Both the position numbers and the translations under genes were made by a program. The notes beneath the pieces are model-generated. The model saw nothing but the letters and a program-made list of their open reading frames with translations, was not told the DNA's origin and did not search any database. Below are positions 3,417 to 27,368 of a DNA stretch of 64,000 bases, one piece after another. Origin of the DNA: a virus (taxonomy: Duplodnaviria > Caudoviricetes); the IMG/VR virus record IMGVR_UViG_3300033121_000983, positions 42,167 through 106,166 of that record; one strand, written 5' to 3'. Positions within the stretch are counted from its first letter, which is position 1. Every line of letters begins with the position of its first letter.

Positions 3417-3845
3417 TTACACAGACTCGCTGTCAGCCAGGTCAGCGCCGATGCGCACGCTGTCGGTCACCGCGATACTGTCGAGTCGGTTTAGCTGCGT
3501 CACCAACCGACCGACACTGGCTTTGATGATTGTCCACATTTGATCGGCCGCGTCGAGGGACGGCACAAGCACGTCGATCTGCGACAGGCGAAAGAACGGC
3601 GGATCCTGACCAGTCGCCGGATCATCCGTGGGGTACTCAACGATATCGACTGCCTGGACCACCGTGATCAGTTCGTCGCGCGTTGCTGTGTGTGCCGAAT
3701 CCGTGTAGACGCGCTGAAACAGGAAGATTTCCGACGGCATCAACACCGGATCTTCGGCGACAATCACCACGCGCCAGGTCGGGGCGTTCTCGCCTTCGAT
3801 CCGCGTCGGCTCGCTGCGCGTCAGAGTCACTCCGCGATCACTCAT
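3417..3845 (-). CDS. Hypothetical protein (142 aa), possibly tail-associated
   Basis: ATG 3845 overlaps the TGA of the glycosyltransferase gene (ATGA coupling). Confidence 0.7.
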   Translation of the reverse strand: MSDRGVTLTRSEPTRIEGENAPTWRVVIVAEDPVLMPSEIFLFQRVYTDSAHTATRDELITVVQAVDIVEYPTDDPATGQDPPFFRLSQIDVLVPSLDAADQMWTIIKASVGRLVTQLNRLDSIAVTDSVRIGADLADSESV

Positions 3846-5680
3846 TGCCCTGGCTCCGGTAACAGCCACGGCGGAGATTCAACGTATCCGCGGCGGCTTT
3901 TTGGCGGCGTAAAAATGTGGCACTTACCGACGTTGAACGCAACGGTGCGATACCCGCCCTGGTGGAGCTGTTCGCCGATCGTCACGTCGCCGCCGTTATG
4001 GTTCAGGCGTTTGCACGGGATGTCGCAGGCCAGCAAGGCCGACGTGCGTGCACACCAGAACCAACCTACCGGAAAGTGTACACAGTTTCCGTTGGGCGCG
4101 CAGCTGCCGTGCGCTGTGCGGAACTGCCGTTGCCGGTACCACGGGGCGTCACGAAACCACTGCAGCTGATATGAACGCTGAATGCGGCTGAATAAGGGAA
4201 TGCCGAAACAGCCCACGTCATCTGCGCAGTCGCGCTGTAACTGGCGTAAGCGCTGATACCAGCTCGTATCGATCACGTAGGTATCGTCGTCGAACCACAG
4301 CACCCAGGGCGTGGTGATCGGCGCACTTGGGTCGTGAAACATCTCGCGCATCGCCGGATACTTACGCCGGCTGTGCTCATCGACGTAAAGCCGCGTCGAC
4401 GGCAGCGCCTCGCAGAGTTCCTGCAAGTACCCCAGCGTGTCAGCGCCGACCTGGTTGCATCCGATGCGGAATTCCAGCGCCCCTACTGGCGTGCTGGCGC
4501 GAATAGAGTCGAGACACCGCCTATGCATCTCAAACTCGTGACGCTGTCGCCCGTGCATCAGAATGCAGCAGGTCATCTCGGCGACAGGAGCTACTTCAGG
4601 TCCAACGGCTTCTGTTCGTTTCTGCTGCACAGCTTGTGGTGTCTCCTTACCAACGGCGATCTGCGCGGGCATACGCACAACACTAGGCGGCGTCCATACG
4701 CTAGGCAGCGCATAGGTCGCCAACGCGTCCACGACCATCTGCGGTTTAAGCATTTTCATGCAGCGCGCTACCGGCTGCGCGCCGACACTTTCCGGGTAGT
4801 CGCACAGTGATTTCTCATTCTTCTCCACGCCGTCATACAGTTTCACGATGCGCTGCCGCCAGCAACCGCTGCGCTCGCAGCAACTGAGCTGGCCCATCGT
4901 ATTGAGGTACGTGTGTGGAACACGCACGGGCTCACAGGCGCCGCCAAATTGCTCAGGAAACAGGTTGGCGTACTGCTCCCAGTGCGGATCCTCGCGTCCA
5001 CCAGCTAGCACCACGCAGGGCTTGTGTAGCGCGCCTGCGATGTGCATCGGCAGCGAGATTCCGCAGACCACGCCGTGCGAGTGGTAAATGTTGACGAATA
5101 GGTCGCGGATGTTCGTTTTGCCGACCATCGAAAGCGCGTCGGCGAGCGGCGGATGCACGTGACGCGGTTTAGCCGCGCCCTCCTGCACGAACTGCCAGCC
5201 GCGCTCCATGCCGAGCCGCACAACTTCCTGGTAGTACTCAGTCGGCCAGAACTTGACGGTGATGTCGAGTTTGCCGCCAGGCACGATCACCAGGTAGTCG
5301 CCGGCGATGATCGGGCGCGTGCGCTCTTGCTCGGTCAGGTGGATGTCGCCATGCGGTTTAGTCAACGTCACCGGCAGGCCCGTCTTCGCCGTAAAGTCGC
5401 GAAAATACGCCGTGAGGTAGTGCTGGCGCACTCCATTGCGAGACTGTGTGATATAGGCCCGCTCTGATAACTGCACTTTTTGTGCGTCGCGGTCGCTATC
5501 AGCCAGCGACGTGAGATAAGGATTGTGCAGCCAGATCGAGTCGGTGAAGTAAGAACGCACGTCAACAAGCACGTCGTCGCCATAACGCAGTTTAATGTCC
5601 CGCACGAGCGCGGTCAGCACGAGAGTGTCGCCAGGTGCACCCTGGTACTGCAGGATGAATTTTTTAGGTGTGCGCGCCAT
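3842..5680 (-). CDS. Two-domain glycosyltransferase: GT9 (heptosyltransferase-like, GT-B) fused to a GT2-like GT-A domain
   Basis: N-half: GAPGDTLVLTALVRDIK, IVPGGK..VKFWP.EYY, ISLPMHIAGALHKPCVVLAGG, CMKMLKPQMV (GT9 signatures). C-half: RCLDSIRAST and WVLWFDDD (DxD), GGDVTIG. Confidence 0.8.
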   Translation of the reverse strand: MARTPKKFILQYQGAPGDTLVLTALVRDIKLRYGDDVLVDVRSYFTDSIWLHNPYLTSLADSDRDAQKVQLSERAYITQSRNGVRQHYLTAYFRDFTAKTGLPVTLTKPHGDIHLTEQERTRPIIAGDYLVIVPGGKLDITVKFWPTEYYQEVVRLGMERGWQFVQEGAAKPRHVHPPLADALSMVGKTNIRDLFVNIYHSHGVVCGISLPMHIAGALHKPCVVLAGGREDPHWEQYANLFPEQFGGACEPVRVPHTYLNTMGQLSCCERSGCWRQRIVKLYDGVEKNEKSLCDYPESVGAQPVARCMKMLKPQMVVDALATYALPSVWTPPSVVRMPAQIAVGKETPQAVQQKRTEAVGPEVAPVAEMTCCILMHGRQRHEFEMHRRCLDSIRASTPVGALEFRIGCNQVGADTLGYLQELCEALPSTRLYVDEHSRRKYPAMREMFHDPSAPITTPWVLWFDDDTYVIDTSWYQRLRQLQRDCADDVGCFGIPLFSRIQRSYQLQWFRDAPWYRQRQFRTAHGSCAPNGNCVHFPVGWFWCARTSALLACDIPCKRLNHNGGDVTIGEQLHQGGYRTVAFNVGKCHIFTPPKSRRGYVESPPWLLPEPGQ

Positions 5681-6879
5681 TAGTCACAGTCTGCCGCGTG
5701 GCAGGCCCCTTCTGGAAATTCTTCAGATCCGCAGATCACGCCGAACGCCGCCGGGTTAATCGGGCGCTGGCCTTCAACACAGTTGCTGCCCAGGAAAACC
5801 CATCGACCCTGCTGGCAGTACCAGGCTCCGACGTTGCCAGGAATTAACAAATTCGATACAGCGCAGGCTTCTTCAATGGCCGCCGCTTCCGCGCACGCAA
5901 TGCTGTCGGCAACTTCATCGTCGCTGATAACGTGGCAACCTGCCGATGATGAGACACCGACAGTAATGACCAATTTGTGCTCGTCGGGGCGCGCGTCGAC
6001 GCGCACGCCGTCGCCGGCCTGAATCACGACGGAACGCCCGGGTAACCCGTTAAAGCTACGCAGCACTTCGTTACAGCGCAGCCCGCCGTCCAGTGTATCG
6101 CGCTCAGCCGGCGGGATATCGCCGTCGTAGCGCGCAATCTCTTCGCAAGCTTCACCCGCGCCAGCGCCAACGCGCGCATTCAGCGTAATGCTGTTAGACG
6201 TTGCGTTAATGTCGACAGCCGCGTTATGTCCGTCTACAAACCGAATTGCCCCGTCCAGGCAATCAGCGGCTGTGTAGTAGGGTTGTTCCGGTACGAGCCA
6301 CGTCAGGTCGTCACCGTTGTCAGCTGTCGCGCGTGTGCGTCCGGCGTTTGACAACGCCACCGCGCGTGAATAGTGCGCATAGAGACTCTGGATACATCCA
6401 GGTTCAATCGCTAGCTCATCCGGGTCGCTAATGATGGTTTCGTCGGGCTCGATCCAGCTGTTGAGGCTTTCAGGCGTCATCGGGCCGAAGATCAGCTGCA
6501 TTTCCCACGTTGTCGTTGTACCGCACGGCGATTCGTCCGTGATGGGGTTGATATCAGAACGGCTCTCCTGGATCGTGCCGTCAACCGTGATTGTGTTTAC
6601 GACTTCGTACGCGTAGCCGCCCAGAATGTCCTCTGCCGGGGCGGTCACGCGCCACGTGAATGTCAGTTCGTCAGCGCCAACGCGTTCAACGCTGTAGAGC
6701 CACACTGTGTAAGTCGCGGCATCGTAGGCAAAATCGACGCCAAAAATTACCTGTGCATCCAGCACGGTATCCAGCGGCATACGCGCGGCAAGGCTATGCA
6801 CTGCCGGCGCGTCTAGCGCTGAACTCAAGAACGGATACGCTCGCGCACCGTTGTCAACAAACCAATCGGTTGTAGCCAT
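5680..6879 (-). CDS. Tail fibre/baseplate-associated protein, WxxxNxxRxYP paralog family
   Basis: Start re-called at ATG 6879 (MATTDWFVDNGARAYPF); contains LRSFNGLPG; Cys-rich C-terminus. Confidence 0.65.
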   Translation of the reverse strand: MATTDWFVDNGARAYPFLSSALDAPAVHSLAARMPLDTVLDAQVIFGVDFAYDAATYTVWLYSVERVGADELTFTWRVTAPAEDILGGYAYEVVNTITVDGTIQESRSDINPITDESPCGTTTTWEMQLIFGPMTPESLNSWIEPDETIISDPDELAIEPGCIQSLYAHYSRAVALSNAGRTRATADNGDDLTWLVPEQPYYTAADCLDGAIRFVDGHNAAVDINATSNSITLNARVGAGAGEACEEIARYDGDIPPAERDTLDGGLRCNEVLRSFNGLPGRSVVIQAGDGVRVDARPDEHKLVITVGVSSSAGCHVISDDEVADSIACAEAAAIEEACAVSNLLIPGNVGAWYCQQGRWVFLGSNCVEGQRPINPAAFGVICGSEEFPEGACHAADCD

Positions 6880-6880
6880 G

Positions 6881-7066
6881 TTACGGTGACGTACCTCGTA
6901 AGAACTGCGGAACCGGCGCCGGGAACGGCACCTCCGGGCAGTCGTGAATGGGATCCGGCGCGGCAGCGACAATACAGTCGTCGAGCTCGTCGAGGTACGG
7001 CCACTCGATCGCCTCGATCTCCGGCATGTCGCAGTCGTTAGGCGGGAACGCAGGTGTCGTCGCCAT
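6881..7066 (-). CDS. Small acidic Pro/Cys-containing protein (61 aa)
   Basis: Fills the gap between two paralogs with 1-2 nt spacing on each side. Confidence 0.6.
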   Translation of the reverse strand: MATTPAFPPNDCDMPEIEAIEWPYLDELDDCIVAAAPDPIHDCPEVPFPAPVPQFLRGTSP

Positions 7067-7068
7067 AA

Positions 7069-7914
7069 TCAACCCTCGCAGCCGCTAGCTGTTGTCAGCG
7101 CTAGCGTAACGGTACCGTCGGCACGCTCGAGTCGCAGAGAAGGGTCGTCGCTGAACTGCCGCGAGGCGGCGATGCGGATGTCGCCGCGGGCGTCCGGTGT
7201 TGCCAGGATCTCACGGCAACCTTGCTTGAACAGGATTTGACGCACGAACTTAGGCGTTGTGAATTCGTCGCCCGCGCACGCAGCACGGCGGAAGAGCGCA
7301 TCGCCGACGACGTTGACGGTGATTGTCGCGCAGGCCTTCGCAACCACCGCGCCCGTCACTTCGTCAACCGCCGGATAGGTCGATTCGCCGCCCGTCAGTA
7401 CAATGCCGCGCTCGCCGACCATTAGAATCCGCCCGGTGAACACGCTGCCGTCATCAAGTACGAAGCCGCGAAACCCGACATCCGGCACGGTCACGCAGCA
7501 GGTCACGCAGAACTCCGTCGCGGCCGGCGAGAAGCTGCGCGTACCGTCCGACCATGTGCGCAGAAACGACAACCGCTCGCTCTCTGTGACCAGCGTTCCG
7601 GCGGCACGGCCGTAGTCGTCGTAGAACATCAACACGTCTGGCAGGTCTGCCAAGTCAACAGTACAGCTTGCGCGCCGAACCACAGCCGCGTCGCCGATGA
7701 CCAGCTCAGCCGTGTCGACACTCCGTGTGATCGACGTTAGGCGCAACCGATCTGCCGCGCCAATGACGTGCAACGACGCGTCCAGGAACGCAGTCTCGGG
7801 GATAAAGTCACCGGTGTCGGCAGTCAGCGTCGCGTTGTCGACGAACGGATAGCGTGACAACGCGTGCTCGTCGCGCCACTCTGGTCGTCGTACGTCTGTA
7901 ACGCTGGTGCCCAT
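7069..7914 (-). CDS. Tail-associated protein, WxxxNxxRxYP paralog family
   Basis: EWRDEHALSRYPF N-terminal motif; TPDARGDIRI C-terminal motif. Confidence 0.65.
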   Translation of the reverse strand: MGTSVTDVRRPEWRDEHALSRYPFVDNATLTADTGDFIPETAFLDASLHVIGAADRLRLTSITRSVDTAELVIGDAAVVRRASCTVDLADLPDVLMFYDDYGRAAGTLVTESERLSFLRTWSDGTRSFSPAATEFCVTCCVTVPDVGFRGFVLDDGSVFTGRILMVGERGIVLTGGESTYPAVDEVTGAVVAKACATITVNVVGDALFRRAACAGDEFTTPKFVRQILFKQGCREILATPDARGDIRIAASRQFSDDPSLRLERADGTVTLALTTASGCEG

Positions 7915-7916
7915 GC

Positions 7917-8474
7917 TTATCCTCGGCGCATCTTACGAAAGCGCTCACTGCGTGCAGCCGCGGCAGGCGCGGCATCGCGTAACGGATGGCCGAACTGCAC
8001 GAAAGCATCCTCAATGAACAGTAGCTCGTTAGCAGCGAACTGCTGCCGCAGCTCACGTTTCGGCACCGCCAGCATTGCTGACAAGCACGTGTAGCGGCTG
8101 CCGTAGATCTTGTCACGCACCTGGCGCGGCAACCACTCCATGAAGTCGTCCCACTGCTTATCCAGCTCGGGCAGTTCGACTGCGCGCAGCACGGGGCGCG
8201 GCGGCTTCGGGCGCAGCGGTCGGTTGATGATCTCTTCGTCCGACAGTGCGGGCGGCGGGACAGGCATCGCGTCGAACGCTGAATGCGCTTCCGTCGGCGT
8301 AAAAGACAACGTATCGACCGGGATCGGCGCGTTAATGTCGACGATCTCTGTGGTCGGTTTTTGCGCCGCTTTCTGCAAGAAAGCTTCATCCACGACACGG
8401 ACGCCGGCAGCGGGCGGTAAGTCTCCGGTCAACGTGGATAACGCAACGGCGCGGGAGCTGAGTTTTCGCGGCAC
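7917..8474 (-). CDS. Protein with a C-terminal domain resembling the RNA polymerase alpha-CTD (HhH fold)
   Basis: Pro-rich N-half, then WLPRQVRDKIYGSRYTCLSAMLAVPKRELRQQFAANELLFIEDAFVQFGHPL, matching the alpha-CTD hydrophobic pattern by eye. AGAAGGA upstream of the GTG start. Confidence 0.4.
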   Translation of the reverse strand: MPRKLSSRAVALSTLTGDLPPAAGVRVVDEAFLQKAAQKPTTEIVDINAPIPVDTLSFTPTEAHSAFDAMPVPPPALSDEEIINRPLRPKPPRPVLRAVELPELDKQWDDFMEWLPRQVRDKIYGSRYTCLSAMLAVPKRELRQQFAANELLFIEDAFVQFGHPLRDAAPAAAARSERFRKMRRG

Positions 8475-8485
8475 ATTGATTCCTT

Positions 8486-10267
8486 CTAAACACCAGGATA
8501 TTCGATGGCGTCGATAGCGAACTCATAAAATACGGTATTGGGATACGCCGTGGCAACTCCGGCCGCGAGGCTCTCCGGCGATAGGCAGCGCGTCTCCCCG
8601 CCTTTACCGACGATCAGACCTGCCTGGCCCACGGCGCGCTGCTCCAGCACGGTCGTTGGGTCTTTTAACAGCTCTACGGTCGTGAAACAGAAGAAGCGGC
8701 GCTGTGAATCGTCGTCGACATCGGGATCAGGCCAAATTGACGCCGTCAGCCGCACCAGCGAGCCCGATACAAACGGAGCTTCCGTGAGCGGCGTGTGGCG
8801 TAGCACGTGATCGATGCCGTCTGTATCGCGGTAGCCGTACACGCAACCCGGCACATAGCCATCGGGCAGGCCTTGGTGCGACGGACCGCCGTCGAAGTAC
8901 AGCTCGCAGTAATGGTAGTCGCCAGCGTCACCGATGCCGAACATCAGACGCGCGTTACCGACGACGTAGCACACCGTGCTGAACTTGCGATAGTGTGGAA
9001 TGGTCGGCACCGCATACACTGCGGTGACCTCGTCATAATCAGTCGATTCAAGTGTGCTGGCGTTAATAGCCGGCTCACGTGCAAACGGATTAAACGTGCC
9101 GTCATCCCACGCGTTGACCGCCCATGTGCCCGCTAGTGTCCAGTCGTACGGGGTCGCGCTGCCCTCGAAGTATGAACGCGACGGCGTCAATGCACTGCGG
9201 TAAGTCGTGAACTCTGTGACGTCGAAGCGCGGCGCAATCCGCAATCGCGGCGGATCGCAGTCACCCGGGATAGACTCTTCGGGCAGCACGATCGAGCTGA
9301 CTACGCACAGCTCTTCGAGTTCTGACGGCAACCGGCCATCACGACTCGGTAGAGCAGCCGCAGTGCCGCAGGTTTCCGTAAGCGCCAGTGGGCTGTCGAC
9401 CAGCACGCCGACCGCCTCTGCGGAGCTCACAACCTCGCCAGTGTCGTCGAGCACGACTTCTTCCACAATTTCGGCCAACGCGGCAGCACCACGAAACTCA
9501 ATCGTGACAATACCGTCGGCATCTGGGCCAACGCCGGAAATTGTTTCCACCGGTTGCGGATCCGCACAAGTGCCTGACTCCGGCCGCCGCCCGCATGGAC
9601 CTACGTATTTCGCCAGTAAGTTTCGCGATTCCCGTGGGTCGCTTTTCAGTCGCACTACGACGCAGCGCACGGCTCCGGCATCGTCGCAGCGCGTCGTATC
9701 CGAACTCGATGAGAAACCGGTGATTTCGCGGCATGCGCCGACAACCTCGATGTCTGCGCCGCCGCGTAATCGCACCAACCCAGTCAACGAGGCGTTATTG
9801 CCCAGTTTACCGACAGACGGGATGGGCATGTCGCGATAGTCGCGACACACGCGCCGCAACAAGCGCGACTGCGCTGGCGACGTAAACCGTCCGCGATAGT
9901 TCAGTGCATCGCGCAAGGCCGGCCCAAACACCACCCACCCCGCCACGCCTGCTGCCATAGGCGTAACGGCGTACATGCGGCCCGCGGCAGCCGTGCGCGG
10001 CAACGTCAGCGCTGCCAGCGGCACGTAAGTGCTGGCGCTGTCAGGCGCGTCTGCGGCCAGGATCACGATCGATACCAGCTTGTCGGTTAGCGTCAGCCCG
10101 CCGAGAAATGCGTACTCGCCAAGGCTGCGCGGAAAATGCAAACGCGCGTCGATCAGCAGATGCGTTGGGACTGTTGTACCCTCATCGTCGCGACAAGACG
10201 CGAGCTCATCCAGCGGATAATGCCGGCCTGCGTTTTTGTCGTACCAGCCTTGGTTCGTGACTGACAT
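8486..10267 (-). CDS. Tail fibre-like protein, WxxxNxxRxYP paralog family
   Basis: GWYDKNAGRHYPL; VETISGVGPDADGIVTI motif; beta-rich C-terminal region. Confidence 0.65.
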   Translation of the reverse strand: MSVTNQGWYDKNAGRHYPLDELASCRDDEGTTVPTHLLIDARLHFPRSLGEYAFLGGLTLTDKLVSIVILAADAPDSASTYVPLAALTLPRTAAAGRMYAVTPMAAGVAGWVVFGPALRDALNYRGRFTSPAQSRLLRRVCRDYRDMPIPSVGKLGNNASLTGLVRLRGGADIEVVGACREITGFSSSSDTTRCDDAGAVRCVVVRLKSDPRESRNLLAKYVGPCGRRPESGTCADPQPVETISGVGPDADGIVTIEFRGAAALAEIVEEVVLDDTGEVVSSAEAVGVLVDSPLALTETCGTAAALPSRDGRLPSELEELCVVSSIVLPEESIPGDCDPPRLRIAPRFDVTEFTTYRSALTPSRSYFEGSATPYDWTLAGTWAVNAWDDGTFNPFAREPAINASTLESTDYDEVTAVYAVPTIPHYRKFSTVCYVVGNARLMFGIGDAGDYHYCELYFDGGPSHQGLPDGYVPGCVYGYRDTDGIDHVLRHTPLTEAPFVSGSLVRLTASIWPDPDVDDDSQRRFFCFTTVELLKDPTTVLEQRAVGQAGLIVGKGGETRCLSPESLAAGVATAYPNTVFYEFAIDAIEYPGV

Positions 10268-10284
10268 GAGTAGAGTACCATTGG

Positions 10285-11460
10285 TTAAGTGCCAGCGTGC
10301 CGTGCGCGCTCAATGGCTGTGCGCACCGTAGCTGGCTCGACCTGCAGCCAGCTCACCAGTGTATCAAAATTTGCGTCACAGCGCTGAGAGCCCCACAGGT
10401 TCATCAGGCGCAGGTATTTGCGCACCGTGGGAGTAACGCCGCCAGCCGTTTGCATTAACAGCCGTTCCAGTTCCACCCCCGGTCCCGGTTGATTTAGCGG
10501 ATCAATAAGCGAAGCAGGCTCTGTCACCGCCGGCGTAGAGATAAGTAGATCACGAGCCGCCAGCCCGGCGTCTGTGCAGCCGACACGCCCAAGTAACAGA
10601 TCCCACGTAGTCGCAGAGATACGTCCAGGTTGCACGTGCGCGGCTTTGACTCCTGCATATGTCATGTAGGGGTTCGGCTGCAGATCGCGCACGTAGCGCA
10701 AGTAGTTCAAGCCTCGCGAGGTCCAGCGTGCGTCGTACGGCGTACGTACGCCGCGCGCAGTGTCGCCGTGCGGGCGAAAACAGTGATTCCAGCGCCACCA
10801 GGGGATAACCATCACCTTGCGCCGCATTTCTAGGTAACGCAGTGTCAACCAACCCTCGGCCCCGAAGCCCGCTTGTTCTGGATGAAAGCCGAGAAACGTT
10901 GATGTACGTGCTGCGAACAACCCGGCCCCGCTGTGTTGAATCTGCACCGGGCGAGGGCTGTTCATGATGTCTTGCGACACCTGCGATCGGCCAAACAGCC
11001 CGTCACGGCCGAACTCAGGTTTCCAGTGTGTCCAGACCGGCTTGATCTTTCCGTGTTTGTCGACAATCGAGTCGCTCAAACAGACGCCGAAGAACAGCTC
11101 ATCGCCAGCGTTATCGAGCAGGTAATTCACCACACGCGGCAGTTGGTCGTAGTCGTACTGCGTGACGTGCGAATCCATGACGATAGTGATCTCGCCCAGC
11201 GCCTCTTTCATAATCAGATTGCGCGGGGCGCCCGTGCTTGTCGGTTCTTTAAGCGGTAGGTAGCGTCCGAAGTAGTTACTACGCACGCGTTGTTCGATCC
11301 AACCGCCCGCGTAATCGGGCTGATTATCGCAGACCACAAGTTCGACAAGCTCGTTGAGGTTGTTACGGACAATCGCCTTACGCAGGTCGACGAGCGTAGC
11401 CCACAGACCCGTGTAATCTTCGTACGTCGGGATGCCGATAGTTACGCGTGGTTTCGTCAC
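10285..11460 (-). CDS. GT2-family glycosyltransferase with C-terminal helical extension
   Basis: VTIGIPTYED, ELVVCDN, GAPRNLIMKEALGEITIVMDSH, GFHP...GFGAEG. Confidence 0.8.
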   Translation of the reverse strand: MTKPRVTIGIPTYEDYTGLWATLVDLRKAIVRNNLNELVELVVCDNQPDYAGGWIEQRVRSNYFGRYLPLKEPTSTGAPRNLIMKEALGEITIVMDSHVTQYDYDQLPRVVNYLLDNAGDELFFGVCLSDSIVDKHGKIKPVWTHWKPEFGRDGLFGRSQVSQDIMNSPRPVQIQHSGAGLFAARTSTFLGFHPEQAGFGAEGWLTLRYLEMRRKVMVIPWWRWNHCFRPHGDTARGVRTPYDARWTSRGLNYLRYVRDLQPNPYMTYAGVKAAHVQPGRISATTWDLLLGRVGCTDAGLAARDLLISTPAVTEPASLIDPLNQPGPGVELERLLMQTAGGVTPTVRKYLRLMNLWGSQRCDANFDTLVSWLQVEPATVRTAIERARHAGT

Positions 11461-11469
11461 CGTCGTGGC

Positions 11470-12633
11470 CTAGAGCGGGGCGTCGTAAATGCAGATCCCG
11501 CCGCCGTCGCACGAGTTCATGCTGGGAATGATCGTGACGGGCAGCGCATCCCAGTAGACTAAAAATGAGCTACCATCGCAAACCACCACCGCGGCGTGGC
11601 CTGATCCGGCACCGGTCCACTGCACGCCGTCCCAAGTCGCTGCGACAACATCGGCGCCGTTATAGACGTAAATTACCGACCCCGCGTAGCAGCCATGGTC
11701 ACCCGTAGAGCCGCCACCGCCGGTCGAGCCACCGCCACCGCCCGTGGTAGGCGGCATAGTAGAACCGCCGCCACCGGTCGTGGGTGGCATGGTCGTAGGC
11801 GCGATCGTGGTCGAACCGCCGCCCGTAGTGGGCGGCATAGTTGTCGGCGCAATCGTGGTAGAGCCGCCGCCGGTAGTACCAGCACTGGTCGTAGGCGCAG
11901 CTGTCGTCGTAGAACCACCGCCCGTCGTACCTGCGCTGGTGGTCGGCGCGGCTGTTGTAGTAGAACCAGGCCCAGTAGTTCCTGCGCTGGTGGTCGGCGC
12001 GGCTGTTGTCGTGGAGCCTGGGCCAGTCGTGCCCGCGCTTGTCGTAGGTGCGGCGGTTGTACCCATGCTGGTCGGTGGGCATACGCCAGGCCCGCACGCT
12101 GAGCTGACCAACTGCCAGACTTTAGTCATACCAGAGAGTACGACCTTGTAAGTGCAAGTGCCGCAGCAATCGGACGTCGGCGCGGACGTAGTCGTTGGCG
12201 CCGCTGTTGTCGAACCGCCCGTTCCGCCTGTCGGAGGGGACGACGAGCAGTCCTCTGCAGTGGATACCAGCTCAACCGTCGCAGGGATCGTGAGGTCTGG
12301 ATCCGGCGGACTGGTTAGCGCGAACGTGACCGAGTCGCCGTACGTCGATGGCAGCGCACCAGTGTAGCCGTAGGTTGTACTTTTTGAGCAGCCGTCAACG
12401 TCGTTACGCACGGTAAACAGTAGCGTCCACGACCCCATAGATGACGTCAGCGTCATCGTAAGGTACGTGTTGTCGGCATCGAGCTCGGACGTACCGCCGC
12501 AGATGCTGCCGGAATCCGCTAGGTACACCCAGCGACCAGGAATCGGATCACCTGAGCAAAACCCCGGCGTGGCGTTAGCGATGTCGGAAACGTAAACAGC
12601 GTAGCAGCTGCCGAAAATGCACGGTGATGGCAT
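11470..12633 (-). CDS. Cys-rich protein with a mucin-like Thr/Gly/Pro stalk (putative tail fibre/appendage)
   Basis: Cys-rich terminal domains flanking TTAAPTTSAGTTG(P/G)GS and TTIAPTTMPPTTGGGS repeats; no signal peptide. Confidence 0.7.
   Translation of the reverse strand: MPSPCIFGSCYAVYVSDIANATPGFCSGDPIPGRWVYLADSGSICGGTSELDADNTYLTMTLTSSMGSWTLLFTVRNDVDGCSKSTTYGYTGALPSTYGDSVTFALTSPPDPDLTIPATVELVSTAEDCSSSPPTGGTGGSTTAAPTTTSAPTSDCCGTCTYKVVLSGMTKVWQLVSSACGPGVCPPTSMGTTAAPTTSAGTTGPGSTTTAAPTTSAGTTGPGSTTTAAPTTSAGTTGGGSTTTAAPTTSAGTTGGGSTTIAPTTMPPTTGGGSTTIAPTTMPPTTGGGGSTMPPTTGGGGGSTGGGGSTGDHGCYAGSVIYVYNGADVVAATWDGVQWTGAGSGHAAVVVCDGSSFLVYWDALPVTIIPSMNSCDGGGICIYDAPL
11702..12062 (-). repeat. Coding tandem repeat (about 4 x 17 aa plus 2 x 16 aa, Thr-rich)
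   Basis: Protein repeats are near-identical while the DNA copies differ at synonymous sites. Confidence 0.85.
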
Positions 12634-12650
12634 CGCAACCCCCCTCTACG

Positions 12651-15395
12651 CTACGGCGCCACGCAAGTTACCGAGATAGTAGCGGCCGTCGGGCCTGTGT
12701 AGGGGTCGCTGACACCGCCAGCTGGGCCGGCCACGGCGCTGTCAAACGTGTAGGTCCCGACGCAGCTGTTACCGCCCGACTTAACGTACGTGGCGTAGAT
12801 GTAGTAGTACAGCCAACCGGCGCCCTCGGTAAATTGCGCCATGCCGATGGTAACAACAGCTTCCCATGTGCCTGGCGTCGCGCAAGACAATGTACCAGCC
12901 AGCCCGGCCACGGCTCCGCTGTAGTACAGCCTGTCGTCCGGTGCGTCGTACAGTGTGTATAGCCCGGTGCCGACGCCAGCGTAAGCTGCGTAACCGGTTT
13001 CTTCGTCGTCAAACTCGTCTGGTACAGTCACATAAGCCGGACCGTCGCAACACAAACAGCTCTCAGCAGAGGCCCCTGTCGTGGAACCATTCGCGTCTGA
13101 TGTCGTGCTGCCGCCGGTCGTGCCGCCGCCGGTCGTACCGCTACCGGTCGTACTACCGCCGCCAGCCACACATGGGATTTCGATCGTGTCGTCGACCGCA
13201 TACCCCGACGGATCTGGCAGCGCGGTTTCATCGCACGCACATAGCGGCTCGTCGCAGCTCACCTCACTGGCGGCGATATTCGACGGCCAGTCTTCGAGCG
13301 CAATACCGGTGCCGGTGACAGATTCCGCAATCAGCGTATACGAGCCCGCGCATGTTGCCGACGAGTAGATGGCCGTAGACGGACAAAGGTTGAGATCCGT
13401 ATCGGTAATTACGATGCTGAACCGCCACGTACCATCCAGCTCGTGCGAAAGCGTCATCGTCATGTGCGGATCAGCGGCCGCAATTCCTGCGGAACTGCCG
13501 CAGTCGATCGCTAGTTCTTCCGCAGTTAGACGCCCGATGAACGGTCCGCGTGTTTGCGGCAATGCACCGCAGCCTGGGCCGCCGCCGAAGCTCACTTCCG
13601 GGAATAAGAATTCCAAGCAATTAACGACGGTACAAGCTTCGCAAGCAAGCGTACCGGTGGTGCCGGTGGTCCCTGTAGTCCCTGTCGTGCCAGTAGTGCC
13701 GGTAGTGGTGGGTACGATGCCGTCAACGCAGCCGCTCTTGAGTACGACGATCTTCTTTACCGGGCAGTCAATCAGACGATACTGCAGCGACTCTTCTGAC
13801 GGTCCGCTGCCCGGCACGTAGCCCGGCACGGGCGAACCGTCGCCCGCGTCTTCGACAACCGGCAGTTCATAAGCGTCGGCAACCAGGCGCATTTTAGCGC
13901 CGGCTTCGCATTCTGCGTCGTCGATGTCCAGCGAGAATGAAATGTAACCCTGTCCGCGCGCGGGGATGTATGGCAGCATCCCCCAGTAGTGCGGGTAGGT
14001 ACCGTGCATCTTGTAAACTTCGCGCGAAATCGGACGGCGAATCGCGGGGTTGATGTACCCACCGCGGAACACGGAGTTACAGTTAACTGAAACTACGTCT
14101 GCGGTAGACGGGTGCGATGTCGCTGTGATGTTTCCGCAACCACCCTCCTCTACGCTGCCCGCATCTGCACTGGCGGAGTCGTCGTACTCGAAGCTGACGT
14201 GTACAACGACGTTATGCACACAGTCGTCGGACTGGTTACAGTACGCAACGGTCACACCAACTTGGCAAGGACTGTAAGAGGCCGTCGTTACCTGCAGCCG
14301 CGGCGCGTCTTCGCGGCACTGCTTTTGTTCGATAAATCGCTGGCGATTTTCGACGTACAATTCGCGCGTAGCAGTCAACTGCTGCCAAGCGGTGTTCGCG
14401 CGCTCGACCAGGCGTCGCAGCGCTTCATACACCGCTGCGTAGTCTTCGCAGCGACAGTTAGGCCCGCAGTTACCGAACAGGCGCAGCCCCTGCTGTACGC
14501 GAACCTTGCGCGCTTGAGTAACGCTTTCCTCGGCCATTACGCTAACCGTGTCGCGTTCCGCGGTGTAGCAACCGGTCGCGGTGATGCGCAGATCGCGCCG
14601 GGCGTCCGGCGCTACACCGGCGATGCGCCGAATCGCAGGTGCGACATCCGTACAATCTGCTGGCACGCGGCCTTCGCCTTTGCCCGGCGTGAAATCAAGT
14701 TTCAGCGACGTCTGTCGGCGTCGACGCGTCGTTTTGGTTGTTGATGTAATAGAGGTGTTGTAGCCGCTGATCAGTACGACTTGACCAGTCAGCGCGGGCT
14801 GTCCCTGCACGCGAATGCTGCGCATGCGCGGCGGCGTACGACAGTACGAACGAGGATCCAGGTAGGCGTCGACGGGCTCCAGGTAGTTCGGCTGCACGAT
14901 CGGCGTGATGCTGTCCGCCCATGCCGTTGCATGTACGACCTGCAGCGCCCAATCGGGCCCGATCCACTCGCAGATCAGCTGATGCTCAGTCCAAGCACGT
15001 TCGCGGTAGGTGACTGACTCGCCGCCGGTAGAGATAACGACGTTATCGTCGGCGTCGACAATGCAGAGATCCCGATCGTGCGACACTTCCGAATCGTCCG
15101 GCACATCGACGTCGTAACAACCAAACCCATACAGCCACGCCAACCGTAACGGTTCCACGTAAGCTCGCCCATCATCCGCGTAAGTTAGCGCGAGATCGGC
15201 GATCATCGAGTGGACACTGTCCCCAGCGTCCGCAATAAACGGATAAAGCGAACCACCCAGCGGCTGATTCACGCCGATTGGAATGTGACCGTACGGATGC
15301 GACTCGTGCTCGCACGTTACCGGCCCGGTGGCAGCCGCGCTGGCGAAGTATTTCGCCGCAAAGTACTGCCCAGCGTAATAGGGTGGCGTAAACAT
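12651..15395 (-). CDS. Large Cys-rich tail fibre-like protein (914 aa)
   Basis: GGSLYPF and IRRIAGVAPDARRDLRI family motifs, CGPNCRCED followed by a coiled coil, (TTG)n and GGGSTT linkers. Confidence 0.65.
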   Translation of the reverse strand: MFTPPYYAGQYFAAKYFASAAATGPVTCEHESHPYGHIPIGVNQPLGGSLYPFIADAGDSVHSMIADLALTYADDGRAYVEPLRLAWLYGFGCYDVDVPDDSEVSHDRDLCIVDADDNVVISTGGESVTYRERAWTEHQLICEWIGPDWALQVVHATAWADSITPIVQPNYLEPVDAYLDPRSYCRTPPRMRSIRVQGQPALTGQVVLISGYNTSITSTTKTTRRRRQTSLKLDFTPGKGEGRVPADCTDVAPAIRRIAGVAPDARRDLRITATGCYTAERDTVSVMAEESVTQARKVRVQQGLRLFGNCGPNCRCEDYAAVYEALRRLVERANTAWQQLTATRELYVENRQRFIEQKQCREDAPRLQVTTASYSPCQVGVTVAYCNQSDDCVHNVVVHVSFEYDDSASADAGSVEEGGCGNITATSHPSTADVVSVNCNSVFRGGYINPAIRRPISREVYKMHGTYPHYWGMLPYIPARGQGYISFSLDIDDAECEAGAKMRLVADAYELPVVEDAGDGSPVPGYVPGSGPSEESLQYRLIDCPVKKIVVLKSGCVDGIVPTTTGTTGTTGTTGTTGTTGTLACEACTVVNCLEFLFPEVSFGGGPGCGALPQTRGPFIGRLTAEELAIDCGSSAGIAAADPHMTMTLSHELDGTWRFSIVITDTDLNLCPSTAIYSSATCAGSYTLIAESVTGTGIALEDWPSNIAASEVSCDEPLCACDETALPDPSGYAVDDTIEIPCVAGGGSTTGSGTTGGGTTGGSTTSDANGSTTGASAESCLCCDGPAYVTVPDEFDDEETGYAAYAGVGTGLYTLYDAPDDRLYYSGAVAGLAGTLSCATPGTWEAVVTIGMAQFTEGAGWLYYYIYATYVKSGGNSCVGTYTFDSAVAGPAGGVSDPYTGPTAATISVTCVAP

Positions 15396-15398
15396 GGG

Positions 15399-16700
15399 TT
15401 ATCCGCAGACCGTAATCGTAACGGAACCCGGCCAGCTGCGCGTACCAGTGCTGGCGCTTAACAGCAGCGACGTCGGCAAAGCGCTACCTGGCGTAGTCGC
15501 GTACGTCGCGGTATCGCCGTTCGCCGCCAGCACCTGAAGTGTGCCTAACTCGACGTCGTAGATCGCACTCGCATAGCTGGCGCCAGTACCGACAAAGTCG
15601 GCGCCGTCGCCGTACATGTCGATGGTTTCGGCTGCGTAGATAGAATCGTCGGTGTCGGACATCTCCGGCAACACCAGTCGGCCGCACATCGGTGCCATCA
15701 TCGGCAGCGGCCCGCCTGACTCAGCCGTCGTTGCGGCTACTGTCGTACCCGTTAGTTCGGTTCCGCAATCGAAACATGGCCGATCACCGAGGCGACTGGC
15801 CAACACGCTCTGACCCATCTGTTCGGTGCGTTGAGATAGCTGCTGACTCAGCTGTTCGAGCGCCGCGACTTGTACGCGATAACGTTCAAGCTCGCGCGTA
15901 ATTACCGCGAGTTCACTGCAGCCGCAGCACGGTTTTGAGCACTTATCGACTAGCTGTAACCCGCCGGCAACCGGTACCAGCTCCAGGCACTCACTACCGA
16001 TCAGCGGGAAGTTGCCCGAAGTGTCCGGCCCGAGACCGTTGACAGTGAGGATAGAGGGTCCCAGGGTTGCGTCATCGTCACAGTCACAGGGTTCGTTCAA
16101 GTTCTCGCCGGCCACGGCAGAGACTGTAATCTGATTGCCCGACTGCGTTAGCCGAACGTTAGGCCCTTCCACGAGTACGATGTCACCGTAAATCGGTGCG
16201 CTGATGTCAGAACCTGACTGCAGTCGCAGCCCGCCGACGCCGCGCAGCACGGGACGGATGCAGTCGGGTTCGAGCCGTCCGCCTTCGACGTCGAATGTGA
16301 ACCGACCGACTGGCTGCGCATCGAGTCCCGACAGCGAGCCGATCACTAGGTGCCCGGCTAGATCGTAGAACTGCCCGATACCGTTAATGCCGTAGACTTG
16401 GTTACGCGTGAAACTCGCACGCGCGATAGCCGTACCCGCGGCGTCAAGCACGCCGTCGTCTGGGTCGTCGTAACCAACGATCAAGCTGATACCGACGCCA
16501 GAGATATCGATCGTACGCAAAAAGAACCGACTAGGTTCAATGTCGGCTGCCAGCGGCACGGCTAAGTAAAGCGAGACGAGAAAATCCGGCGGCAACTCAA
16601 ATTCATCGGTCGTGTCGCGTGCGCTGGCGTCGCGCGTCAGCGGATAAGACCGCGACGCGTTGTGATCGAGCCACTCGAGGTTTTGGTAGAGGTTCGACAC
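15399..16700 (-). CDS. Tail fibre-like protein, WxxxNxxRxYP paralog family
   Basis: LEWLDHNASRSYPL; ILTVNGLGPDTSGNFPL; CSKPCCGCSEL followed by a coiled coil. Confidence 0.65.
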   Translation of the reverse strand: MSNLYQNLEWLDHNASRSYPLTRDASARDTTDEFELPPDFLVSLYLAVPLAADIEPSRFFLRTIDISGVGISLIVGYDDPDDGVLDAAGTAIARASFTRNQVYGINGIGQFYDLAGHLVIGSLSGLDAQPVGRFTFDVEGGRLEPDCIRPVLRGVGGLRLQSGSDISAPIYGDIVLVEGPNVRLTQSGNQITVSAVAGENLNEPCDCDDDATLGPSILTVNGLGPDTSGNFPLIGSECLELVPVAGGLQLVDKCSKPCCGCSELAVITRELERYRVQVAALEQLSQQLSQRTEQMGQSVLASRLGDRPCFDCGTELTGTTVAATTAESGGPLPMMAPMCGRLVLPEMSDTDDSIYAAETIDMYGDGADFVGTGASYASAIYDVELGTLQVLAANGDTATYATTPGSALPTSLLLSASTGTRSWPGSVTITVCG

Positions 16701-24697: not shown

Positions 24698-26362
24698 TTA
24701 TGTTTCTGGAACCTCAACAGTCGCGACAGTGATACTGACGTCCCGCGAGTCCAGGAAAAAGGCTACCGTCTTGCCGGTTGTCATACTGCCGGGGTCGTTA
24801 GGCACCACCAGCATGTCGCGCGATGACGAAGTCACCACCGTACCGTCCGGCTGCCGCAGCGTACCCACCAACAGCATTGCTGCGATCGCGGAATTGCGCG
24901 GCAGGTACGACTGTACAAGCTCTGCAAGGATAGACGCGGGCAGTCGACCTGTGAAACTGAATTGTCCATTTACCAGATCCGCCAGCGCTGTCGCCACGGT
25001 CTCGGTGTCGACCTCGGCTTCGGCGTTTTCCGGCAACTCCAGGCTGATACCGAGCTGCACGAAACACGGCACGGGTGCGCGCACCAGCACGTCAGCGGCC
25101 GCGTGCACGCGGCTGAGTTGCGTTACGTAGTCACTGATGTCCGCGATCAGTGGCATCGACCGCAACACGCAGTCGTAGTCGCGCGTTGTACCGATGTCGT
25201 CGGCGGTCACAGGTGTGTCAACATCGGCAAACTGCAGCACGATAGTCTGGAACCGACTATACGCAGCCTCAGCAGCGTCTGTGATATCTGGCAACCGAGC
25301 CCCGTCAATTGCCGACAGATCAATGCCGCGCGTGTCGCTGACGACAGCGTAAGTGCCTTCGGTTGTGGCCTCGGTGCCTTCCTGCACGATGCGCGGCACG
25401 TCGTACACACCTGCGGCTTCGTCGCGCGTAAACGTTAGCTGCCAAATCCCGTTGCCGGCAGAGTTACGGCTCACCAGTGTCGCCGTTTTGGTGCTGGACG
25501 TCAGACGCGCGTTGCTCTGTGTGCGAATGTACCAATCTACGCGACCGCCGGTTGCGCCAGGCCAAAGGGCATGCCGGTCGCGCAGCATCTCAGCGTCACC
25601 GAACCCGATGATGGATGACGCTACACACCCCGCGAAATCGGGCTGCGCCAGCAACAGCGCACGCATGGACGGGCGATCGGACAGTGTCTGCGAGGCGACG
25701 CCGGTGAGCAGGCGCTCGATTAACGATGCATTCGACTCGCCGTCCGTTCCGCCTGTAAAGTCGGCAGACGCGAATGACTTCACATAATTCAACGGCGGTG
25801 ACGCCAGCGTCAACAGCGTGTCTTTAGCCAGCAACCCCGCGGCTCCGGGCTCTTCATCGGTCACGTCGATCGTGAACGCGTAGTTGCCGTCTGGCAGCGG
25901 CGTCAGCACTTTATCAGAGTCGGATTGCCGTAATGACGACGCTGTGCGCGCGACAAATGCGCGAGTAGGCACGAATGTTCGGCCGTTTGCCGAAAACACC
26001 GCGCCTGCGGGAATCACAACTGTCTGCAGCGCAGACACAACGATCGTCAGCGGACCACTGGCGTTTGCACCGGCGCGCCGCGTTAGGCGGAAATTTGCCG
26101 CAACGTTATCGACGATGTCATCGTCAGCCAGCGTAGGATCTGCTGCGATGTAGGCGAGTGATTGCGACCGCTGGAGTCGCGTAAATTCCTCGGCGCGTTT
26201 CGCCGCCAGCACGCCCGCCAGGCGCGTCAGTACGCTGCCCAACGCGCCGCGGCGTGCATCGACTTCCGGCGCGTACGCCTCCAGCGTGGCACCGAGCTGC
26301 GCGGATAGGCTCTGCACAGTCGCCAGGTCCAGCGACAGCAGGTCATCGATCTGAATGGGCAT
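24698..26362 (-). CDS. Baseplate J-like (gp6-type) wedge protein
   Basis: LTRRAGANASG, VIPAGAVF, FTGGTDGESNASLIER, GGRVDWYI; follows a gp25-like gene. Confidence 0.8.
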   Translation of the reverse strand: MPIQIDDLLSLDLATVQSLSAQLGATLEAYAPEVDARRGALGSVLTRLAGVLAAKRAEEFTRLQRSQSLAYIAADPTLADDDIVDNVAANFRLTRRAGANASGPLTIVVSALQTVVIPAGAVFSANGRTFVPTRAFVARTASSLRQSDSDKVLTPLPDGNYAFTIDVTDEEPGAAGLLAKDTLLTLASPPLNYVKSFASADFTGGTDGESNASLIERLLTGVASQTLSDRPSMRALLLAQPDFAGCVASSIIGFGDAEMLRDRHALWPGATGGRVDWYIRTQSNARLTSSTKTATLVSRNSAGNGIWQLTFTRDEAAGVYDVPRIVQEGTEATTEGTYAVVSDTRGIDLSAIDGARLPDITDAAEAAYSRFQTIVLQFADVDTPVTADDIGTTRDYDCVLRSMPLIADISDYVTQLSRVHAAADVLVRAPVPCFVQLGISLELPENAEAEVDTETVATALADLVNGQFSFTGRLPASILAELVQSYLPRNSAIAAMLLVGTLRQPDGTVVTSSSRDMLVVPNDPGSMTTGKTVAFFLDSRDVSITVATVEVPET

Positions 26363-26370
26363 GGAACATC

Positions 26371-26859
26371 TCACACCGTGCCAAGGGAGAAATTAGCAGG
26401 CAGCAAGTATACCGCAGATGCCCCGGCCTGTGATGTGACTGTGAACGTCACGCCGGCGTAATCGCCGGAAAACAGCACGTTCTGCGACTGAATCTGCGCC
26501 AAACGCTCATCGGCGGGATCCGTTTCCAGCTCTTCGTTGACCAGATTACGCGCTGCTCGCTGCGCTGCTCGGGTGAATGCCGACAACAGCCCGGCAGGCG
26601 TGCGCACCGCACCGCTGCGTAATTCGGTCAAATAGCCGGTACCGCGCTCGGGAAAGTAAGGCTCCGACCCGGCATCCTGCAGAAGCTCCAGGAACACGCG
26701 CTGCGCCAGCTTTTGCAGACCGGCTGTGATAGTCCCACCGGTCGCCGGGAGCGCCAACGCCAGCGCGACTTCCTGCGGCATATCGGTGACGTTGATATCC
26801 CGCGGGTGCAGCACAAGCAGATCGACCTGGCGACCGATGTAGTCGTTTGCTGAAACCAT
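26371..26859 (-). CDS. gp25/GPW-like baseplate sheath-initiator protein
   Basis: AGLQKLAQRVFLELL...GSEPYFPERGT motif; directly upstream of baseplate J. Confidence 0.75.
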   Translation of the reverse strand: MVSANDYIGRQVDLLVLHPRDINVTDMPQEVALALALPATGGTITAGLQKLAQRVFLELLQDAGSEPYFPERGTGYLTELRSGAVRTPAGLLSAFTRAAQRAARNLVNEELETDPADERLAQIQSQNVLFSGDYAGVTFTVTSQAGASAVYLLPANFSLGTV

Positions 26860-27368
26860 TAGTTACCGCCGGCGGCAGATGCCGCGAGTTTGAGGTTAGC
26901 GACGTAATCGGCAATGCCGCGATCAAGCACACCGCCACTCACGGCATGCGCTTCCTGGCGTGCTGCGGCGTGAGCGGCGGCACGGCAATAGGGCAGCGTT
27001 GCACTGAAGTAACTACGTTCCACGGCCTGAAGAAACTCCAGCTGACTCTGTAACACCGCCAGATCGGCAACCGTCCCGCGCGGTTTCGACGGCTGTACGT
27101 TCGCTGGCTCCAGTGCGGACACCGGTCCGTCCCCGGTTTCCAGCTGTCCGACAATCGCCAGCATTTGATCGTGCAGGGTTTGCCGGTTGAAAGCTGCTGC
27201 AATCGACGCGGGATCGCGCAAGTCGAGCGCATCACCGGCCTCACCTGTTGGCTGAAACCATTGCGGGCGCGCGTTGCCTTCAACTCCGTTGTAGGCGGCC
27301 TGTGCGTACGCCCGCAGTGCGTCAACTAGCGCGGTAAACTCATCAGTGACTGTAGCGACTGAACTCAT
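26859..27368 (-). CDS. Hypothetical protein (169 aa)
   Basis: Coupled to the sigma gene and the gp25-like gene. Confidence 0.7.
   Translation of the reverse strand: MSSVATVTDEFTALVDALRAYAQAAYNGVEGNARPQWFQPTGEAGDALDLRDPASIAAAFNRQTLHDQMLAIVGQLETGDGPVSALEPANVQPSKPRGTVADLAVLQSQLEFLQAVERSYFSATLPYCRAAAHAAARQEAHAVSGGVLDRGIADYVANLKLAASAAGGN

Follow-up and report, generated by a model that had tools for sequence, protein, structure and literature searches.

A candidate phage-encoded system for O-glycosylation of mucin-like tail-fibre proteins

Here, we analysed a stretch of 64,000 nucleotides (nt) from an uncultured phage (bases 42167-106166 of the 106-kb metagenome contig IMGVR_UViG_3300033121_000983 of IMG/VR; hereafter, the window), in which glycosyltransferase (GT) genes are interspersed with genes of fibre-like proteins. 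Our results suggest, with a probability that we put at roughly 0.6, that the phage uses its own enzymes to O-glycosylate its tail-fibre proteins inside the host cytoplasm, either ahead of tail assembly or while it proceeds. This reading is well supported for a pair of adjacent genes, which encode a 391-aa GT of the GT-A fold and a 387-aa mucin-like fibre protein, and it is plausible but unproven for a 612-aa fusion of a GT9 and a GT-A domain; our confidence in the fusion is lower than that in the 391-aa enzyme. The initial annotation of this DNA had pointed to three GT domains and Thr-rich repeats in tight spacing; all of these lie where it had placed them, on the same strand. The genes at the centre of the analysis are the following:

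3842..5680, minus strand: 612-aa two-domain glycosyltransferase (Pfam GT9)
4700..5680, minus strand: GT9 (GT-B) domain of the 612-aa protein, residues 1-327 (VIA-align; profile search against the PDB)
3851..4591, minus strand: GT-A domain of the 612-aa protein, residues 364-610, with a WFDDD motif (VIA-align)
10285..11460, minus strand: 391-aa soluble GT-A glycosyltransferase (PF00535)
11470..12633, minus strand: 387-aa mucin-like fibre protein (translation)
12651..15395, minus strand: 914-aa fibre protein, N-terminal region (residues 27-518) conserved

A mucin-like protein encoded next to a GT-A glycosyltransferase

The gene of the 387-aa protein ends 9 nt ahead of the start of the 391-aa GT gene, and its product comprises, in this order, an N-terminal domain, a Thr linker, a small Cys-rich module, a repeat tract of ~130 aa and a C-terminal domain. 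The tract (residues 181-312, nt 11698-12093), which had been described from the outset as a Thr/Ser/Pro/Gly repeat stalk in the gene just before the GT2 gene, consists of 17-aa units (TTAAPTTSAGTTGxGS) and 16-aa units (TTIAPTTMPPTTGGGS) made up of Thr, Ala, Pro, Ser and Gly, and a fragment of the repeat can be written as (TTAAPTTSAGTTGPGS)n. On the DNA level, Tandem Repeats Finder detects 3.8 copies of a 51-nt unit and 2.8 copies of a 48-nt unit at 11768-12061. A search among 5.8 billion proteins yielded a single homologue, a variant of ~86-89% identity with a shorter tract (P0007, 309 aa). This variant has 72 tract residues fewer and a 6-residue deletion in the first linker, while its globular parts are ~90% identical to those of the 387-aa protein, indicating that tract length varies between strains. 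Thr-rich linkers are also found in the 914-aa fibre protein, where a (TTG)n linker (nt 13635-13724, with (TTG)6 at residues 563-582) and a GGGSTT-type linker (residues 745-770, nt 13062-13175), both already noted in the initial annotation, are set between small Cys-rich modules. In the homologue of this fibre from the related phage G001, an 85-aa poly-Thr tract lies at the corresponding junction.

The assignment of the 391-aa protein to GT2 is borne out by PF00535, which matches residues 7-117 above its cut-off (28.7 bits against 23.3, E 1.5e-6; 30.7 bits in a second run). Close homologues are rare, with four among the 5.8 billion proteins at 42-45% identity (P0002-P0005). The sole match in a metagenome scan was a fragment that is identical across residues 1-227, and neither single-protein scans of IMG/VR with the 391-aa and the 612-aa protein nor a scan of it with alignment A1 found anything; the homologues from IMG/VR and other contigs that are discussed below came from wider alignments (A3, A5 and A6). 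The structure model of the 391-aa protein (predicted local distance difference test score, pLDDT, 78) has a GT-A fold that matches many GT-A enzymes with Z>15. Its top fold matches are polypeptide N-acetylgalactosaminyltransferases (ppGalNAc-Ts), both in Foldseek (E 6e-12) and in the Foldseek-independent VIA-align, where ppGalNAc-T comes first (Z 18.8/18.4 over ~255 residues), followed by K4CP (17.2), RmlT (16.9), B4GALNT1 (16.7) and TarS (16.3). Across alignments A1, A5 and A6, D96-x-H98 (D96-S-H98 rather than DxD) and H226 are invariant, even in members of ~25% identity. A D-x-H motif and a distal His form the Mn2+ site of the GT27 family of ppGalNAc-Ts, to which the three residues may correspond, probably with similar spacing. 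The C-terminus of the enzyme is helical, and the protein has neither a ricin-type lectin domain nor an N-terminal membrane anchor (no hydrophobic segment). It is therefore GT27-like at most and not a member of GT27; we refer to its family as D-x-H GT2.

The enzyme co-occurs with Ser/Thr tracts in other viruses

A co-occurrence of GTs and Thr-rich fibres in other phages, which the initial annotation would lead one to expect, is strongly present for the 391-aa GT2. With a wider alignment we found 66 other viral loci with a D-x-H GT2, all but two of which have no other gene in common with the window. We defined a tract as a Ser/Thr-rich, not collagen-like stretch of at least 40 aa in an open reading frame (ORF), scored it as upstream (same strand) or downstream when it was located within 2.5 kb of the GT2 gene, and grouped the loci into clusters at 60% GT2 identity. 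An upstream tract is present at 43 of the 52 informative loci, corresponding to 17/19 clusters, and a downstream tract at none (0/49 loci, 0/17 clusters). As a background, we used windows from fibre-rich loci of another gene family, 26 of 482 (5%) of which have a tract. By Fisher's exact test, the upstream clusters differ both from this background (p = 4e-18) and from the downstream clusters (p = 2e-8).

When the tracts are masked, few pairwise similarities are left among 16 representative partner proteins. Given that the partners are mostly non-homologous, this suggests that the GT2 is linked to the tract itself and not to one fibre family. Pfam and PHROGs returned nothing for 10 mucin-like partners. 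Where the context is readable, the partner proteins, which in phages are 300-1400 aa long, sit in tail modules of unrelated phages: two siphovirus-like loci (L111 and L148) have the gene order tape measure, ~305-aa gene, mucin-like protein and GT2, and at a third (L092) an ORF upstream of the mucin-like gene, at a distance of ~2.6 kb (three ORFs), matches tail-fibre and head-decoration PHROGs.

A similar pattern is seen within the clade of this phage, in which the D-x-H GT2 occurs only in the three lineages with long Thr tracts, that is, the window, the phage of loci L009/L046, and G001. At L009/L046, the GT2 gene directly follows that of a 781-aa protein holding a Ser/Thr tract of ~200 aa. 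The D-x-H GT2 was not found in eight other relatives, five of them without tracts and at least 90% complete, and the other three 97%, 100% and 78% complete.

A GT9+GT-A fusion beside a hypervariable island

The 612-aa protein had been annotated as a GT9+GT2 fusion. Its GT9 part stands by Pfam (PF01075, residues 71-235, E 2.8e-13, 50.2 bits against a cut-off of 22), whereas the C-terminal domain matches PF00535 weakly and below the cut-off (E 7.7e-4), which makes "GT2" a fold-level call for this domain. The AlphaFold model (alignment of 38 sequences, pLDDT 91) shows two domains joined by a disordered linker (residues 341-363). In VIA-align, residues 1-327 match 3tov (Z 22.2), WaaF (20.2), TibC (19.2) and WaaC (18.6), and residues 364-610 match WrtF, TarS, SpsA and TarP (Z 16.7-15.2). 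G17-D18 aligns to the GD motif of WaaF and K143 to the K(R/H)W motif of WaaF/WaaC; among the 38 sequences of A3, the former is nearly invariant and the latter invariant. The protein also has a Cys cluster (C267, C273, C293 and C307), in which the last three residues are invariant and C267 is nearly so. A TibC-like membership of the fusion was rejected, since the N-terminal beta-barrel, which comprises residues 1-97 of TibC (PMC4358343), is missing and residue 1 of the model aligns to TibC residue 90.

The fusion is a conserved gene in a clade of large phages. Its family is large, with 593 cluster representatives at E<1e-30, and we found the fusion in 145 IMG/VR loci, many of them on contigs of 100-550 kb. 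Synteny was read in 80 fetched related loci. About 45 of these share the gene order 605-433-914-593-281-430, a variable segment of 0-6 kb, the fusion, the 150-aa gene and, further on, a 238-aa gene, with the fusion consistently closing the block of fibre genes. The variable segment between the last conserved fibre gene and the fusion is a hypervariable island, whose content differs in nearly every relative (L004:4374-10047, L013:5858-9957, L020:5379-9989, L033:6213-10007, L082:3724-10077 and others). Among the 132 island ORFs we found fibre genes (10 with collagen repeats and 4 tail collar genes) as well as glycan enzymes, namely 9 GT2, 4 further ORFs matching the GT2-like PF13704, 3 GT4 and 3 MptE/Maf-like genes, in addition to methyltransferases (S-adenosylmethionine), 2 Capsule_synth genes, one GT-D-like gene and GT2-TPR fusions; a sulfotransferase-like gene is also part of the island content. 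The window's island holds no genes, the fusion gene directly adjoining that of the 430-aa protein; the D-x-H GT2 and the mucin-like protein are instead found as an insertion between the 914 and 593 genes.

Residues ~310-391 of the 391-aa enzyme (nt 10288-10533) form a small helical domain with the pattern GxGxxL..LL..GI..CxC..M..G..WC..N..IV.WL. In four relatives an ORF of its own encodes this domain, immediately ahead of the fusion gene (L008:9583-10044, L011:9448-9984, L026:9449-9982 and L050:9424-9984), which ties the 391-aa enzyme and the fusion together and suggests that the two may work together.

Genomic context of the region

CheckV estimates the source record to be ~52% complete, from which a size of roughly 200 kb follows for the parent phage. 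The GC content is ~60% throughout the window, and the minus strand carries nearly all window genes, including all those of the region. Between 20642 and 3417, intergenic gaps range from -28 to +17 nt with a single exception of 96 nt, and the GT/fibre region forms the distal end of the structural operon. Other features are as follows:

15399..16700, minus strand: 433-aa fibre-like paralogue with the shared N-terminal motif (blastp; synteny in 13 loci)
8486..10267, minus strand: 593-aa fibre-like protein (tblastn matches to query residues 1-~320, 29 loci)
7917..8474, minus strand: 185-aa proline-rich protein of unknown function (ORF list)
7069..7914, minus strand: 281-aa fibre-like paralogue, N-terminal motif shared (blastp match with the 593-aa protein; 32 related loci)
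5680..6972, minus strand: fibre-like protein, ORF of 430 aa (3.3% Cys; N-terminal motif)
3417..3869, minus strand: 150-aa protein without assigned function (placed by tblastn synteny immediately behind the fusion gene in 43 of 80 related loci)
24698-26374: Baseplate J (Pfam)
35867-38578: DUF2345/spike-like protein (Pfam)

The label "tail-fibre operon" is supported indirectly by three lines of evidence. Baseplate J and the spike-like gene are located in the window, and collagen and tail-collar genes occupy the same place in relatives. Moreover, relatives keep only the N-terminal parts of the 914-, 593-, 433- and 430-aa proteins (for the 593-aa protein, the ~320 N-terminal residues are conserved and the C-terminus is variable), as one would expect of fibres that are anchored by a fixed part and vary at the distal end. 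None of 10 region proteins was matched by PHROGs (0/10); the 185-aa protein has no Pfam or PHROGs family match, and the 150-aa protein has no Pfam match. The GTs and the fibre-like proteins show no signal-like N-terminus or membrane segment in a hydropathy scan, in agreement with the earlier observation that signal peptides are lacking.

An N-terminal W-x-D-x-N-A-x-R-x-Y-P motif is common to the 430-, 281-, 593- and 433-aa proteins (at 6879, 7914, 10267 and 16700, respectively), which seem to be a family of paralogues that have an attachment domain in common; Pfam and PHROGs contain nothing for this family. The listed TTG start of the 430-aa ORF adds an Arg-rich leader of 31 residues that is common to no homologue, and homologues from 30 loci align starting at residue 31/32, so the true start is probably the ATG at 6879 (Met32).

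The fibre-like proteins and the fusion GT (window 5680-16700) have a Cys content of 2.5-3.9%, which is odd for particles built in the reducing cytoplasm. Other structural proteins mostly have less than 1.2%, the exceptions being two proteins of the neighbouring lysis-like cassette (2.1-2.3%), and mucin-like partners in other phages reach 9-11% (e.g., L111:3763-5973 and L148:3863-5995). Further Pfam matches in the window are to a peptidase of the matrixin type, a sigma-70-like protein and a gene with an intein. The second of these, a sigma-70 region 3/helix-turn-helix protein (27365-28132), lies inside the baseplate gene block and has the same place in two relatives (L012 and L025); the third, an 866-aa gene of the head region (52024-54624), contains an intein with Hint and LAGLIDADG domains. 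An identity of this phage as a "Moraphage" (PMC12619734) was considered and dropped, given that Moraphages are predicted to infect Bacteroidota and have no link to this record of 60% GC.

Weighing fibre glycosylation against other explanations

Several findings weigh against O-glycosylation of the fibres. All the evidence is genomic or comes from predicted structures. Gene position is the one indication that the 387-aa protein belongs to the virion, 9 of the 52 informative viral loci have no upstream tract, and the GT2 of G001 is located elsewhere in the genome and does not adjoin the Thr-tract gene. The margin of ppGalNAc-T over K4CP and the wall-teichoic-acid GTs RmlT and TarS is small (1.6-2.5 Z), and the window copy of the helical domain has lost its two cysteines and 13 residues besides. 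Lastly, the fusion is conserved in relatives without mucin-like tracts; since it is present in many such relatives, Thr repeats are not its only or obligatory substrate. The O-glycosylation proposal of the initial annotation is well supported for the 391-aa GT2, by co-occurrence and fold, and does not gain the same backing for the fusion.

The most serious rival is that the GTs modify host envelope glycans (the lipopolysaccharide [LPS] core or O-antigen, or a wall polymer) and thereby hide receptors, prevent superinfection or keep progeny from adhering to debris. Genes for receptor modification are often carried along with those for receptor binding, which would account for the location. The family profile of the GT9 domain places it closest by sequence to the LPS heptosyltransferases WaaF (8.9e-11) and WaaC (1.5e-5), and the nearest solved proteins to the 391-aa enzyme by sequence profile are the phage-encoded teichoic-acid GT TarP (3.6e-4) and TarS, both of which are cell-wall polymer GTs. 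The island beside the fusion, with its Capsule_synth, GT4 and methyltransferase genes, also resembles polysaccharide loci. However, modification of the envelope leaves the directional link to Ser/Thr tracts across non-homologous partners unexplained. The GT genes are located in the late structural operon, their products have no membrane segments and no features of lipid-carrier-type GTs, and GT2-TPR, Maf-like and GT-D-like genes, which are characteristic of protein glycosylation, are among the neighbours. We therefore consider this explanation unlikely, if still worth keeping in view.

Alternatively, the Thr/Gly/Pro tracts could be plain, unmodified flexible linkers and the GT genes passengers with an unrelated role. 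Linkers rich in Thr, Pro and Gly are common in modular proteins, a tract length that varies between strains is what one would expect of a neutral feature, and most relatives carry the GT9 fusion without tracts. Such an arrangement is nevertheless contradicted by the association statistics (17/19 clusters upstream, 0/17 downstream, 5% in the background) and by the pattern of GT2 presence and absence within the clade, and we regard it as improbable.

A third possibility comes from bacteria, in which the A6 scan of genome contigs gave 252 matches to the D-x-H GT2. Most of them have an N-terminal extension of ~330 aa with a GxxGxGK P-loop motif (e.g., L192:1054-3339, L206:3969-5867 and L207:3402-5885), and a PDB sequence search with the extension of L206 returned nothing. 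The L192 homologue has a C-terminal GT25-like segment in addition. In a Thermomicrobiales bin, a 1114-aa protein with a twin-arginine (Tat) signal, many Cys-rich modules and several poly-Thr tracts (L231:1469-5900) ends ~180 nt before a stand-alone D-x-H GT2. These bacterial loci are consistent with a family of cytoplasmic enzymes whose targets are Thr-rich polypeptides. The P-loop-fused homologues and the pairing of a stand-alone enzyme with an exported, poly-Thr protein would also fit glycosylation of a small peptide or secreted product akin to peptides that are made on the ribosome and modified after translation (RiPPs). The phage enzymes, in contrast, have no P-loop N-terminal domain, and their partners are proteins of 300-1400 aa in tail modules. 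This option, which strikes us as quite improbable for the phage, still implies glycosylation of Thr tracts and differs only in the fate of the product.

Glycosylation of phage DNA bases, for which there are well-known precedents in the phage GT-A/GT-B enzymes that glucosylate hydroxymethyl-pyrimidines (as cited in PMC12619734), is very improbable here, given that the genes lie within the fibre operon and not in a DNA-metabolism module, that five fusion-carrying relatives of at least 93% completeness have no gene of the thymidylate-synthase/hydroxymethylase family, and that no DNA GT is among the top fold matches.

Proposed mechanism of fibre glycosylation

If the fibres are indeed glycosylated by the phage's own enzymes, the fibre and GT genes would be expressed together from one tightly packed late operon, and none of the products is predicted to have an export signal or a membrane segment. 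Being soluble and encoded in the late structural operon, the enzymes would meet the fibres in the cytoplasm. D96-x-H98 and H226 of the 391-aa enzyme are probably the residues through which a divalent metal and a nucleotide sugar are bound. Judging from gene association and fold, this enzyme would transfer the first sugar to Thr/Ser hydroxyls of the 387-aa repeat tract and probably acts also on the TTG/GGGSTT linkers of the 914-aa fibre, which would make it the prokaryotic-virus counterpart of mucin-type initiation. More tentatively, the fusion may add two further sugars, either to the same glycans or directly to conserved fibre proteins, with its GT9 half probably using a heptose-type donor. 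No GmhA-type gene is present in five complete relatives, so that an ADP-heptose donor would have to come from the host; genes of nucleotide-sugar pathways were not found in the sequenced half of this genome (record ~52% complete). In relatives, the extra GTs and methyltransferases of the variable island might diversify the glycan. The outcome would be extended, glycan-covered hinge or stalk segments on the fibres.

A bolder version of this mechanism, which we offer as speculation and hold to be rather doubtful, is that a Cys-rich, poly-Thr "mucin" module and a GT27-like initiator form a mobile two-gene cassette that moves between unrelated phages and into bacteria, giving prokaryotic viruses true mucin-type O-glycosylation. 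In this clade, the cassette would plug into a GT9+GT-A "core" enzyme and a hypervariable island and work like an O-antigen locus, diversifying the fibre coat under selection by hosts or grazers.

Comparison with known glycosylation systems

The closest precedent comes from the mycobacteriophages Che8, Corndog and Myrna, in which virion glycosylation was demonstrated by measuring the glycans (Freeman et al. 2023, Cell Host Microbe, via PMC12619734 and PMC12582341). According to these two articles, the mycobacteriophage GTs act in the cytoplasm on the phages' own structural proteins at Ser/Thr-rich segments, and, as in the window, their genes lie inside the virion structural operon, next to those of Ser/Thr-rich structural proteins. 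The systems differ in that the mycobacteriophage substrates are the C-termini of capsid and tail-tube proteins in phages of Actinobacteria, whereas here the presumed substrates are internal repeat tracts of fibre-like proteins, and in the enzymes, which here are a GT27-like D-x-H GT-A protein and a GT9+GT-A fusion. Our literature searches found this precedent and no description of a GT2/mucin module.

The 391-aa enzyme resembles the GT27 ppGalNAc-Ts in its fold, probably in its D-x-H motif with a downstream His, and in its presumed acceptors, Thr/Ser/Pro-rich repeat tracts. Unlike them, it has no lectin domain or anchor, its identity to them is ~15%, and sequence profiles place it in generic GT2. 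The fusion shares the GT9 fold with WaaC/WaaF and with the autotransporter heptosyltransferases TibC/AAH, and its Asp and Lys regions align with those of WaaF/WaaC. TibC, which has this fold, hyperglycosylates a repetitive adhesin on its Ser residues within the cytoplasm (PMC4358343). In contrast to TibC, the fusion lacks the N-terminal beta-barrel and is joined to a GT-A domain; its four conserved Cys appear to lie roughly in the region of the iron finger that is inserted in the C-lobe of TibC, with a spacing of C-x5-C-x19-C-x13-C compared with C-x2-C-x15-C-x11-C.

The stepwise O-glycosylation of repeat-rich surface proteins in the cytoplasm by several soluble GTs that we propose is also reminiscent of the serine-rich repeat adhesin systems (GtfA/B with GT-A and GT-D extenders) and the Maf flagellin systems, and in relatives the island next to the fusion includes GT-D-like and MptE/Maf-like genes. 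A GtfA/GtfB pair is absent, however, and none of those families is encoded in the window. Chloroviruses and Mimivirus encode their own GTs, which decorate surface proteins of capsid and fibrils independently of host pathways. These giant viruses share the principle of self-encoded GTs with the phage studied here, but they have eukaryotic hosts, and their enzymes and substrates are unrelated.

Implications

To date, experimental demonstrations that phage enzymes glycosylate virions are known only for a few mycobacteriophages. If our reading is correct, the trait would be widespread among phages from the environment, among them large phages for which the GT9 gene is a hint of Gram-negative hosts, and the enzymes used would be similar to those that initiate mucin glycosylation in animals. 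There could be effects on fibre mechanics, protease resistance, adsorption and host range, and predictions of fibre mass and receptor binding that use only the sequence would mislead. Together, the 391-aa enzyme and the 387-aa protein are a compact, directly testable pair, and such small soluble enzymes could serve to glycosylate Thr-rich tags in bacteria.

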